A stretch of 64,000 bases of DNA from Eledone cirrhosa (lineage: Eukaryota): the NCBI GenBank assembly GCA_964016885.1, contig OZ024743.1:291028001-291092000 (forward strand). The letters are read 5' to 3'. Shown here piece after piece: positions 10,108 through 58,245 of this stretch (position 1 is the first letter of the stretch; each line of letters starts with the position of its first letter). The position numbers and the translations under genes are program-made. Below the pieces are notes generated by a model. The model saw nothing but the letters and a program-made list of their open reading frames with translations, ran no database searches and had not been told where the DNA came from.

Positions 10108-10548
10108 AATTGTAATAATTTTGCGAGTGACATGTTGCCAATAAAACACACGCCCCTGTCGATTTTCATTTCACTTTATTATAAATTTCTGGTTGGTTCG
10201 ATAACGGGGTGGTTGTTTATATATTCTAAAAGCTCGTTCATCACACATTCTGTAACCTCATCAGGGACTGAGTTTTTATTTTGTTTCTCTCCTTTGTTCA
10301 GTCCTACAACATCTTGTTTTGTGTTACTGGGTAGGTCATAGAATGTGTGTCGAAAGAGCTTTTACAATATATAAACAACCACCCGGTTATCGAACCACCC
10401 AACCAACGGGACTTTTATAATAAAGTGAAATAAAAACCGAGGGCTGCTTGTGTTTCTATTGGCAACATGACCGTACCAAATTTAAACAAAATCTGTTTCA
10501 ACACACGTTTTCAAATATGAAATCTTGCAAAACAAATTCCAAAACAAA
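10108..10548. mobile_element. PLE family B mini fold-back (short left arm, tailed right arm)
   Basis: Inverted copies of the family B 3' end (GGCAACATGAC...). The right arm continues into the TCTGTTTCAACACACG...AATTCCAAAAC tail. Flanked by (TA)n. Confidence 0.75.
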
Positions 10549-10577
10549 ATATATATATATATAAATATACAAATTCC

Positions 10578-11400
10578 AAATTAATATAAATTAATATATG
10601 ATAAACACTAATACAATTATATAAGTGTTGAACGCACATGGCTTTTCAGCGCCTAGCTAGTCCTATACTCGTGCTGCTAGAAATAACAGCCGTTTTTATG
10701 GGACTAAAATTTGGATCAACAAAAGGAGCCGTTAATACTATATATAGAGTTATAAACTCAAACAGTCTTTTACAATTAAATAGCTCAAAGAAAGAGGTAT
10801 TTCTGAGCCGTGAAATACAAATTAATATAAATTAATATATGATAAACACTAATACAATTATATAAGTGTTTGAATTGCAAATGACCAAGCTAGCTAGATT
10901 GAAAAATACTAATTACATTAATACAGTTTTCCTATCTCGATTTAAAATAATAAATCAATAAAAACAAACCCATATTGGCAATAGCCGTGATACCTGGACA
11001 AATTTAAATTTCAAAACACAAACCTGTTCCGCAGACAAATTTAAATTTAAAAACCCAAATTCGTTTCGCAATGATAAGTGAAAAAGTGAAATATTCCATT
11101 TCTGTGCTCTTCGGCAGGTATCCAGAAAATTGGTATGTTTCACCTCAAAATACTTAGGAGGACTGATAAACTAAACAAGTGTTGAACGCACATGGTTTTT
11201 AGCGCCTAGCTAGTCCTATACTCGTGCTGCTAGAAATAACAGCCGTTTTTATGGGACTAAAATTTAGCTAAAAAAAAATGAGCCGTTAATACTATATATA
11301 TAGAGTTATAAACTCAAACAGTCTTTACAATTAAATAGCTCAAAGAAAGAGGTATTTAATTATAAAAGACTGTTTGAGTTTATAACTCTATATATAGTAT
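10578..11400. repeat. Partial tandem plus terminal inversion of an unclassified repeat
   Basis: 10623-10802 is repeated at 11177-11357, 10578-10627 is repeated at ~10819-10870, and 11358-11400 is an inverted copy running into (TA)n. Confidence 0.7.
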
Positions 11401-12044
11401 ATATATATATATATATATATATATATATATATATATATATATATATATATATATATTTCGTTTTGGAATTATATATATATATATATATATAAATATATAT
11501 ATATATATTGTTATACTTGGGGACGGTCATATTTGCGTAATATTGCCAGAATTAATAACAGAACACACTCACTGTTTGGTTGGTTTTCGCTTCTCGCTGT
11601 CTTTTATTATATCTGCGATCTAACTTACTCGGTCCTCAATGTTGCCAGTGACTGACCGGCGGTCAAAAATAATACAGATACAATATAGACACAAACACAT
11701 ATATATATATATAGTTTACATAATTTACATAAATCTTTCGTTGCACATCTGTAACATCGTCAGTGGTGTTATATTTATTGTTCCTCCTGTTGTGTTGTAT
11801 GTCTACGCCATTTTTTATTCAGTCTGTCTATATATTTATTTATTTATTTGCTTGTTTGTTTATGTTATTTTATTTTGTCTTCTTTGCGCATGCGTTTGCG
11901 TGTGTGTATAGTGTTATGTGTGATGTGTGACTAGTGTGTATAGTGTTGTGTCTGCTGGGTGACTAGTGTGTGTTTATGTGCTTGTTGTTATTGTGCTTGT
12001 GTATGTATTTATTTATGTTATTTTATTTAATTTTATTTACTTAT

Positions 12045-54889: not shown

Positions 54890-55069
54890 CATAAATATTA
54901 CATTTTTAGTATCTATCTCAAGGTAATTAAATTACTAATCTAACGCCACGTGAACAATGATCACTAAAAAGAAGACATATTGCTGAACAGCTTTTGAATG
55001 AATAACTGCTTATTGTAAAATCGGCAAGATATCACTAATTACAAACATACATATAGGAACACACATATA

Positions 55070-56279
55070 CAGGGTACGGACGGTATTTGAGGACATATAT
55101 ATGGTTATATAACAGAAAAAACTGTATTCTTCTAAAAATAACATATATATAAAGCTAAATTATCAATTTAATAACGTCATTCAATAAAACCACCATAAGC
55201 ATCAATAACTGCCTCTACACAGGGTCGACATATTTTGCAAGCTCGGATTAACTGGTCCTTGTTCATATCAGACCTGACTCGAATTATGGCGGCTTTCAAA
55301 TCATCTTTGGTGTTATGGTGGTGTTCATTGACATTTTTCTAAACGATGCTCCATACATAGTAGCTCAGTGGATTGAAGTTTGGAGAATTAGGAGGCCAAA
55401 TGTTGGGGGTGATATGATCATTGTCGGCGATCCATTCTTGTGTCATTTGAGCCTTGTGTGATGGTGCAAAATCTTGTTGAAAGACATAAGTCCTTCCATT
55501 TTATACACTGTTGATCCAAGGCTTAACATCTTTATCTAGAACCTCAATGTATGCAGCAGCATTCACCCTAAGGCCTTGTGGAAACATTTGAGCAGGCGTC
55601 ACATGTCCTTCATTGCTAACAACATCCAAATCCATGACACTTGCAGGAAATGTTGTGGGCATTAGTCTTGGAACCTCAGAATGGTCTGCGCATAGCCACT
55701 TGTCATTTCTTCTGTTAGTTTTGTGGTCCTGGTCAAAGTTTTTCTCATCTGAGAAAAACCAAATCATACCATCTTCTGATGGATTTGTAAGTTTGTTTAA
55801 ATGTATTTTTGATCTGATTAAATTGTTTTTTCTGACATGAATCGACCTCTCCTCATCACGAAAGATGTCTTCATGCACAACTTTTCTGATTGATTTTTCT
55901 GACACACCAACGTATTTTGCAATTGACCTCATTGATTTTCCTGGATATTCATCAATGTTTTGATTAAGTTGCTGTATAAATTCAGGTGTCTTGATAGAAT
56001 CAGAGCGTTTGGAATGTTTTTTACGTTTTGATACAGATAATACGCTTCCATCTTATTTCTCTAACTCACAACGAATCTTGTGGATAAAAGATCTTGCAAC
56101 TGTCAGAACACGCGAAATTGTTATATCACCATGCTTAGCCTTCAAAAACCACAATCACAGCATGCCTTTTCATTTCATTAGTAAGCATAGTTATTTTCTG
56201 AAATGGAAGTTCAATAAAAATTAGTCAAATAAAATAATGACTAAAAATACATGTGTCCTCAAATACAGTCCGCACCCTG
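55070..56279 (-). mobile_element. Tc1/mariner transposon of maT (DD37D) type, with defective transposase
   Basis: Terminal inverted repeats CAGGGTRCGGACKGTATTTGAGGACA with TA duplications at 55068-69 and 56280-81. Motifs FSDEK, FQQDFAPSH and WPPNSPNFNPLSYYVW (third Asp lost), with frameshifts. Confidence 0.92.
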
Positions 56280-57302
56280 TATATGTATGCACATATACTT
56301 CTAGTCACACATAGACACATGAAGTCTACAGAGTTATCCTATATAGCTCAACAAAGTATAAAAAGCTGCGGCAACAATAGGCTATTCTTTGTAAACTGAA
56401 TTGCTATATATTTTTCGAACCGAACCTTATCAGTTGAAAACAGAAAAACAAGATTGAGCATAAACCTAAAAGTAGGATGGTTAAATGATTTACACCAAAT
56501 GTATTTCAAAGTATTGTATTGCAATTCCTACTTTGAAAAGTACATGGAAAATGCAATATCATTATCGATCAGAGCATAGAAGGCTAAACAGAAAACTATA
56601 ATTTCCAACTAGCACTGTTTACATGTATATGCATGTTGAATTGATATTAATTTGTCAAAAGTCAATCCACTATTCTAACCAGGTGAGATATGTGCCTGCT
56701 CCATTACAGTTTACAAAACTCAGAGCTATTTTTTATATAAATCTTTGGAAAATGTAAAGAAGTATTATCATTGCATGTTTTCTAGTTTGATTAAAACTAA
56801 TATAATGGAATATATATTACACAATCGAGCATATATTCCACTGCGAGAAACCAGATGCCTCATCATCTCATTATTTGTATATTTACATGTAAATATTTTA
56901 CTCATCATTCCAATGTTTGTTTAACAAAGATATTATATAATAGCGTAAAGCATGGGGGAAAACGCATGATATCAACTTCAAAATCCAGGCATGATCCTCC
57001 AATAAAACGTGACTCATTTCACATAACATTACAACACCGCTATATATAATCAGTTATGTTATCTGTCGTCAATATAATCAGAAGTATGTGAACAGAGAGT
57101 TCGATACAGTAAAATTAAAATGATCCCTTGACAAATGCCTTGAGTAACGAATATAAACCCACGCGAACACAAACACACACACCCACACACATATATATAT
57201 ATATATATATATATATATATATACATATATATATATATATATATATATATATATATATATATATATATATATATATATATATATATATATATATATATAT
57301 AT

Positions 57303-58245
57303 ATTGTTATACTCGGGGAGGGTCATATTGTTATAATATTGCCAGAAATAACAACAGAACACATTTACTGTTTGGTTTGGGTGGGTTTTGGATTCTGTAT
57401 CCTTTATATCTCCATGGTTAATCTATATCTGGCAATCAATTATAATTATTGATTGACCAACCGTTAACAATACATATATAAATATATATAGTCTATCAAT
57501 GTTCTTTCGCCACACATATGTGACATCATCATAGTGTAATGCCTACGCCATTTTTATCTTATTTATTATTTATTTATTCTTGTCTCTGTCTCTGTTTGCG
57601 CATGCGTTTGCGTGTGTTTCTTGTTTGATGTGTGTGTTCGTGTTTAAGTGTATGTGTTTTGGTTTTCGTATTCTATCTTTGTCCACTAGTGTGTATGTAT
57701 GTGTGTGTTGTTATTGTACTTGTGTATATATTTATTTATTTATTCATTTATATTTCCCTTAGGTGAGTAGTGTTTGTTTGAGTATGGTTGTTGTTGTTAT
57801 TCCATTCGCTCTTTCTGTTTAACTTTGGTTTTCTTAGTTCTCTCACAGTTGCTTCGCTGCGTTGCCTTCTTGGTGAGTCATTTCTATGATTGGATATTAT
57901 TTTAATTTCTATGTTGTCAATATTACCGTCCTGTTTTTGTCTGGTGTTTTCATAATATACTAAACCGTATTTTTGTCCTTTTAGTTCCCTCCAGTGTTGG
58001 TCTATTCTTCCTCCTACGCTTCGAGCTGTCTCACCTATGTATGTGATTGTCATGTTTCTGCAAGTACGTTCTCAACATCTTATGCTATAGACTACATTTC
58101 TAGTTTTACAATTTATTTACAATAAACCAAACAGTGCGTGTCTTCTGTTATTATTTCTATCAATATCATAAAACTATGACCCTCCCCCAAGTTTAACAAT
58201 ATTTGTTTCGACAAACGATTTCACATCAAAAACCTTGCAAAGAAA
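57303..58245. mobile_element. Older family A-related fold-back (long short-ended left arm with endonuclease remnant, tailed right arm)
   Basis: ORF 57748..58053(-) contains YIGETARS. Right arm 58120-58241 includes the TTTGTTTCGACAAACG tail. Confidence 0.88.

Follow-up and report, generated by a model that had tools for sequence, protein, structure and literature searches.

The 64,000-nucleotide (nt) stretch of the Eledone cirrhosa genome analysed here (3.0 Gb in total; contig OZ024743.1, positions 291,028,001 to 291,092,000, forward strand), referred to as the window, is packed with Penelope-like elements (PLEs) that sit in (TA)n as head-to-head arms. The outer 3' end of an arm lies either at a fixed short end site (S) or at a long end site (L), which is reached through a family-specific tail, and two-armed insertions almost always combine one end of each kind. 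This S/L pairing is confirmed as a real feature, far beyond chance. The feature as such is the known PLE tail, a link already drawn in the initial annotation of the window and supported here, while the addition is a quantitative, multi-family coupling rule.

Two End Sites and Their Pairing

The window is dense in (TA)n runs, and its self-comparison with simple repeats masked reveals many head-to-head inverted repeats with TA-run borders. As judged by eye, 16 of the 17 two-armed window elements are S+L, the exception being a long+long insertion of family E made up of two tiny tail arms (28490..28588). The coordinates cited initially for the arms and tails of families A, B, and C all proved correct on rechecking; the short arms of the two-armed family C elements at 46313..46565 (long end left at 46313, short end right) and 50718..53198 (short left, long right) stop at 46565 and 50718, respectively, and the tail of the long arm measures 89 nt.

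Outside the window, 340 loci were sampled, which together with the window amount to 1.8 Mb. Their sources are one tail-containing query, seven productive tail-less queries, 40 family A hits that were extended, and 60 stretches of 10 kb taken without selection. A genome search with family H gave no match, even though its query is part of this genome; since the best 40 candidates were scored per genome search, young copies are favoured in the sample. Family letters beyond A, B, and C were assigned in the present analysis and may differ from those used initially. Arm ends were called by a stricter classifier, gapped alignment having overrun into TA runs and given false intermediate ends. Left out of the curated count were family H (self-similar core, false pairs) and families K, L, and M (of low complexity or with an insufficient number of copies), as well as arms cut by a locus edge, pairs more than 7 kb apart, and duplicates with identical ends. 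Curation by eye relabelled seven arms and re-read "long+long" pairs of family G as tandem read-throughs; where the internal TA run was at least 16 nt long, which applied to ten pairs (5 S+L, 3 S+S, 2 L+L), the pair was set aside as probable separate insertions. The held-out set comprises the curated pairs minus the window and the tail-selected A loci, with a recurrent 181-nt form of family F collapsed. For a reference-free test, the outward ends of 1549 TA-bounded segments were clustered, and clusters were given an S or L label after inspection, three of these labels being corrected later.

The 747 unique arm ends from eight families comprise 332 short, 283 long, and 78 tail-only long ends; the remainder are 32 read-throughs, 16 ends cut upstream, and only 6 intermediate ends, so that the 3' ends, in a test named beforehand, do not form a continuous distribution. 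Tail length is family-specific, about 37-170 nt. Family A possesses two long sites, at about +44-46 and +58-59; the two discrete positions proposed initially hold as two end classes per family, not as a single long site in every family.

Uncurated automatic pairing yields 186 S+L, 7 L+L, and 9 S+S pairs and 3 pairs with an intermediate end (205 pairs without a long internal TA run), and most of the exceptions are, on inspection, tandem read-throughs, indel-bearing tails, false self-pairs, or edge cuts. After correction by eye, S+L accounts for 166 of 170 pairs, and for 133 of 136 in the held-out set (p=2e-37 against 0.5 on the 135 S/L-only pairs). The reference-free clustering, which added six family groups whose tails measure about 37-135 nt, extends the asymmetry to 13 family groups, with 192 S+L, 3 L+L, and 1 S+S among 196 pairs, where about half would be expected to be S+L by chance; S+S and L+L are both far below chance, as the initial annotation had predicted when naming this test. 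S+L is found in all 29 pairs from the unselected 10-kb stretches, and in 177 of 180 pairs when the recurrent F form is collapsed. As a control, symmetric foldback families come out symmetric by the same clustering. Apart from the recurrent F form, inversion junctions vary among copies, so the pairs represent independent events.

The rule is limited to two-armed insertions. By eye, 8 of the 40 family A hits are single-armed (3 S, 5 L), and the initial claim that every insertion uses one of each is to be narrowed accordingly. One of the three same-family L+L cases (L098) turned out to be an A arm joined to a B arm, and ten cross-family segments distribute as 4 S+L, 3 S+S, and 3 L+L. Clean two-family head-to-head joins are seen at L076:7573-7679, L103:1386-1589, L075:290-670, and in the window at 18838..18982, where an arm of family M meets a long arm of family F; they suggest that some events use two RNAs. 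The rarity of S+S may suggest that tail-less donors are poor templates. At L095:300-3185, a family A short arm carries about 45 nt of the family C short end at its outer end and is partnered by an A long arm, which suggests that at the short site of A the RNA used as template changed from C to A.

Element Families Obeying the Rule

The family A insertion of the window (11508..17151) consists of a 3.9-kb short-ended arm (11508-15383, minus strand) and a 1.77-kb tailed arm (15386-17151, plus strand), arranged head-to-head between (TA)n flanks; its left arm ends at 11508 with ...GTATAACAA followed by TATA. It includes a 5'-truncated open reading frame (ORF; 12045..15410, minus strand) of Neptune/Nematis type, with the reverse transcriptase (RT) motifs DKSG and YVDD, a CX4CxxC linker, and, at the C terminus, a GIY-YIG domain with CCHH. 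The textbook PLE layout is displayed by the copy at L062, in which an inverted 196-nt short arm and a partial tandem precede a full unit with tail. Its open ORF of 1210 amino acids combines DKSG, YVDD, and YIGET motifs into a single RT plus GIY-YIG frame, with CX4CxxC located at residue 1077 and with the GIY-YIG core surrounded by C/C/H/H. A CX2-5CxxC linker before the C-terminal endonuclease (EN) together with CCHH is given as the Neptune/Nematis signature in PMC8557442. Among the atlas neighbours of the family A ORF at 0.97 is a GIY-YIG/RT cluster; scans of this ORF's sequence against Pfam and PDB gave no match. As judged by motifs and not by a tree, family A is an endonuclease-containing (EN+) PLE of Neptune/Nematis type. 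About 200 nt upstream of S it contains a hammerhead-like CTGANGA...GAAA core with a stem, for which Rfam returned no hammerhead match. Upstream of the RT, the family A ORF has a long asparagine-rich stretch (window ~14450-15030, minus strand; residues ~250-410 in L062), which recalls the N-rich inserts in rotifer Penelope ORFs described in PMC3846280.

In family C, the read-through copies L105 and L268 contain RWR and DKT, CxCX5C occurs in the window at 50860-53000, and the target is (TA)n; the long arm of the element at 50718..53198 contains broken RT and GIY-YIG coding sequence with the CxCX5C linker. RWK-like and DKT motifs, a CxCX5C linker, and (TA)n targeting are the Hydra signature according to PMC8557442, and on these motifs, again without a tree, family C is classified as a Hydra-type PLE. 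An assignment of A and C to Naiad PLEs was rejected, the endonuclease being C-terminal in both and not N-terminal. Families G, H, and J consist of tandem units that measure roughly 320-590 nt and are non-coding, with no long ORF. They are represented in the window by two-armed insertions of G (unit of ~440 nt; 34991..35378, short left, long right) and H (44103..44589, short left, long right) and by a J insertion (unit of ~590 nt; 17361..18719) with its long end left after a read-through tandem copy and its short end right. The tandem unit of H gives a hammerhead HH9 match (E=7.5e-5) below the gathering score. With the pairing found in A, C, G, H, and J, two clades of coding elements as well as non-coding passengers come under the rule. 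DNA transposons with terminal inverted repeats, or miniature inverted-repeat transposable elements (MITEs), were rejected as an identity, as the ends are unequal and the junctions vary among copies, while symmetric foldbacks in the same data have equal ends.

Position of S and L within the Tandem Unit

Both S and L lie inside the tandem unit: in families A, C, G, H, and J, copies in tandem continue past L into the unit that follows. The start codon of family A lies just before S, so that the tail is coding sequence, corresponding to about codons 8-27 of the ORF; in the window it extends from S to the first long site at 17110..17151 (plus strand), coding for the start of the ORF of the next unit. 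A coding tail is likewise described for rotifer Pen2a in PMC3846280. The idea, put forward initially, of L as the terminus of the RNA is unsupported by these positions.

The ends overlap the TA run by 2-6 nt at all 13 end sites with known continuation, against a null rate of 0.235 for at least 2 nt. Microhomology had been claimed for the internal site; the overlap is indeed present at S, but it is not confined to it, as it is shared by all long sites with known continuation. The tail of family C includes longer TA tracts at which none of 24 tail-entering arms stops. Better TA matches thus being left unused, the register would be set by something other than homology. In a predicted fold of family J (L245:1585-1794), the surroundings of S and L pair in a stem of ~11 base pairs (bp), bringing the sites together; this stem is not seen in A, C, or G.

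Arm Lengths, Templates, and Alleles

As the initial annotation had stated, the tail can occur on the longer or on the shorter arm. Among the 166 S+L pairs, the S arm reaches further upstream in 75 and the L arm in 36; the two are about equal in 41, and 14 were left without a call. In 75 of the 166 pairs, 30 of which have a tail-only long arm, each arm carries sequence that is absent from its partner, and therefore both arms need an independent template. Measured from its own end, each arm is of similar length (n=103; medians of 219 nt for S and 250 nt for L; Wilcoxon p=0.84), with the short arm being the longer one in 49 of the 103 pairs. Partner arms share subfamily alleles, in family A at 201 of 278 comparisons within insertions (0.72) versus 1856 of 10664 between insertions (0.17), and in family B at 69 of 94 (0.73) versus 403 of 2211 (0.18).

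Proposed Mechanism and Alternatives

Pairing, private arm sequence, equal arm lengths, shared alleles, and the behaviour of cross-family joins taken together favour two coupled primings on one RNA. Reverse transcription is probably primed by both 3' ends of a double-strand cut in (TA)n, with a single element RNA as the template for the two and with S as the start of one and L as that of the other. The GIY-YIG domain would cut both strands of (TA)n, and since (TA)n is self-complementary, both cut ends would present the same primer. One ribonucleoprotein, probably with a protein dimer bound to the tail, would offer two start registers flanking the tail, each being used once and stabilized by a few UA/AU base pairs. 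The two cDNAs would stop independently, and their ends would then be joined, creating the inversion junction. Events involving two RNAs would escape the pairing rule, and a single-armed copy would arise if one cut end were left unextended. The two arms face outward, each with its ORF-sense 3' end next to the TA run; this polarity agrees with sense RNA being the template primed at the two ends of the target. A search for empty sites, concerning the origin of the flanking TA, found a match for only 8 of 187, none of them with short TA.

Several points weigh against this pathway. The evidence is fossil, consisting of the genomic sequence of these families. Allele sharing is weak in C (8/19) and uninformative in G (1/6), and it denotes a common source subfamily, not a single RNA, as co-active copies would also share alleles. 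The 5' ends of long arms do not pile up at S (9 versus 10 of 96), so that strand displacement, sequential use, or two units of a tandem RNA have to be assumed in any model with a single RNA. The two clean same-family L+L exceptions show 94.2% and 96.6% identity between arms versus a median of 97.4% in normal pairs (n=32); being not clearly more divergent than these, they lend no support to an origin from two divergent RNAs. The set of cross-family segments is small, and several of its cases are nested, not directly joined. No RNA structure joining S and L is shared among the families, and only the tails of H and J fold better than shuffled sequences. For the anole PLE, initiation in vitro is reported in PMC11167929 to proceed without strand preference and without target homology.

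The main rival explanation, which we regard as unlikely, is that RT starts at L on both sides and that the endonuclease then trims one arm at the TA-like S while resolving the intermediate. It is in line with PMC8557442 (Craig et al.), in which the tail is ascribed to endonuclease-mediated resolution; the TA-rich, target-like nature of the short sites would be accounted for, and one tail per insertion with either arm longer is what it predicts. Trimming would, however, require re-ligation of the trimmed end to (TA)n in ~98% of events, and it should leave trimmed arms one tail length shorter, whereas the lengths are equal in what is a test of modest power. The TA-richer sites within the family C tail stay unused, and the in vitro work of PMC11167929, in which RT starts at both tail boundaries, likewise speaks against it.

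It is considerably less probable that L is the RNA's 3' end, or the point at which a donor transcript enters its own flanking UA run, with S alone being internal. Most genomic long ends adjoin (TA)n, and in transcripts from donors of this kind L would be directly followed by a UA run; this is countered by the tandem read-through of L in five families, by the location of L inside the family A ORF, by the two long sites of family A, both at TA steps of a continuing template, and by the anole PLE, in which both starts are internal (PMC11167929).

Very little probability is given to a single priming followed by fold-back self-priming, with the second arm being a copy of the first cDNA, as has been proposed for PLE palindromes in PMC3846280. 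Near-equal cores in 41 of the 166 pairs, some perfect palindromes, and the alleles shared by the arms are compatible with it, and it may account for some equal-armed cases. It cannot produce the 75 pairs with private sequence on each arm, for which L091, with a 1.6-kb short arm and a 41-nt tail-only partner, is a telling example; these pairs exclude fold-back as a general route, unless antisense RNA supplies the missing part. Scarcely credible, finally, is that short ends arose later by deletion from an internal TA to the adjacent repeat, or are artefacts of microsatellite assembly: all ends adjoin unstable (TA)n and short sites overlap TA, but this reading is refuted by the pairing counts, with S+S as rare as L+L, and is opposed by the asymmetry of near-identical young pairs (L062, L063, L092), by fixed end positions that pass over better TA matches, and by symmetric foldbacks being recovered as symmetric by the same method.

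Beyond the families studied here, coupled asymmetric double priming, in which a dimeric RT-endonuclease would hold a single RNA by its tail and offer two fixed registers, is tentatively put forward as the way in which TA-targeting PLEs integrate, with chances somewhat short of even.

Further Elements of the Window

Two-armed insertions related to family A lie at 57304..58241 (short left, this being the longer arm, and long right; tail 58200-58241) and, as an older copy, at 22175..23030 (long left, interrupted by another repeat, and short right). Family B is represented by a B-type element at 10110..10549 (short left, long right; tail ~10490-10549), by one at 25613..26014 (long left, short right; tail 25613-25675), and by a mini insertion at 29400..29462, in which a 31-nt short arm faces a tail-only long arm. 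The short arm is on the left and the long arm on the right in the family E elements at 28174..28434 and 47786..48048 and in the family I element at 19430..20281. The family D insertion at 8872..10069 looks symmetric; its right arm carries a tail of ~55 nt with an expanded internal TA run, which is also found in L264. A single-armed partial tandem of family K (44649..45296, minus strand) ends at its own long site. The inverted arms around an expanded microsatellite at 46861-47658, one of which is ~240 nt longer, have too few clean copies for S/L calls.

The 181-nt family F hairpin (20931..21111), which has an 81-nt tail, recurs with one and the same junction at L161-L190, making up 11 of 46 F pairs and 17 segments in the reference-free set. 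Its 12-nt loop occurs in either orientation relative to the tail; the recurrent form may mark a hotspot for the junction, or the hairpin may move as a whole, its loop flipping in the process. Same-family neighbours with their tails facing each other over a single TA run (L116/L117, L126/L127, L067, L082, L338), some of them with identical matched stretches, may reflect local re-insertion or duplication during the event. Symmetric MITE-like foldbacks in TA runs, distinct from the tailed hairpins, are present in the window at 19000-19174 and at L070:2673-2830, L073:3088-3501, and L173:1984-2231. Non-palindromic repeats of a fixed length of ~110-120 nt with TA on both sides, resembling short interspersed elements or single-armed copies, are located at 19224-19340, 26042-26155, and 28726-28840.

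Between inverted repeats of ~50 nt, the segment 55052-56297 contains a broken transposase-like frame (ORF 55501-56052, minus strand) with a weak helix-turn-helix match, which we take to resemble Tc1/mariner. A GC-richer segment with overlapping reading frames is found at 62064-63980; the first frame, which ends in a CX2CX4HX4C knuckle, is presumably like ORF1 of a long interspersed element (LINE).

Relation to Known Systems and Implications

PLEs are the closest retroelement relatives of telomerase. In twin priming of LINE-1 (L1), as reportedly described by Ostertag and Kazazian in 2001, both target ends prime on one RNA, resulting in an inverted junction; the internal site used by the second primer varies, and there is no overlap between the two pieces. 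Twin priming is also mentioned in bioRxiv 2024.12.14.628481. In the PLEs, by contrast, the two starts have fixed positions about 37-170 nt from each other, and the overlap between arms is usually extensive. L1-type twin priming was rejected on the grounds of these fixed starts, of the overlap of arms in most pairs, and of the missing pile-up of long-arm 5' ends at S.

The PLE tail is described in PMC8557442 as 30-40 bp long, often at one end only, and as a product of endonuclease resolution, and in PMC3846280 as residing on one of the inverted pseudo-long terminal repeats (pLTRs), with self-priming as the proposed origin; for canonical EN+ PLEs as well as Naiad/Chlamys, both sources treat a tail of this length as optional. 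In the families described here, the tail is about 37-170 nt long, and ~98% of the two-armed insertions with both arms from one family have it on one arm and not on the other. In vitro, the anole PLE PAc, a Poseidon element, cuts and extends both strands and uses two internal starts bounding the tail, and a dimer is predicted (PMC11167929). The likeness extends to the location of these starts in the 5' ORF region and to AT-rich targets; unlike PAc as reported there, the present elements overlap TA by 2-6 nt at both sites, belong to other clades, and include non-coding families. Pairing at the two ends of PAc insertions is not reported in the main text of that study. Non-LTR retrozymes (bioRxiv 10.64898/2026.07.22.740005) are short, non-coding tandem units related to pLTRs, a description that G, H, and J fit, H with its hammerhead-like match. 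A rolling-circle route is proposed for them in that paper, in the searched passages of which the word "tail" is absent, whereas here short units insert two-ended and inverted, like coding PLEs.

That the tail is one-sided and is bounded by two internal RT starts is thus already known (PMC8557442, PMC3846280, PMC11167929). A count of long/short pairing was not found in the literature searched, older Penelope papers possibly describing the pairing qualitatively, and neither were equal arm-length distributions, shared alleles of partner arms, or the loss of the rule in cross-family joins. In PMC8557442, the way PLEs form their tandem and inverted insertions is counted among the unsolved problems. 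If true, coupled double priming would be distinct from both LINE priming and twin priming, would explain the tail together with the inverted structure, and would be common to at least two PLE clades and to non-coding passengers. The one-of-each rule, holding at ~98% over 13 family groups, is a sharp prediction for the existing in vitro system, and it helps to set PLE boundaries and to tell PLE-derived hairpins from MITEs in TA-rich genomes.

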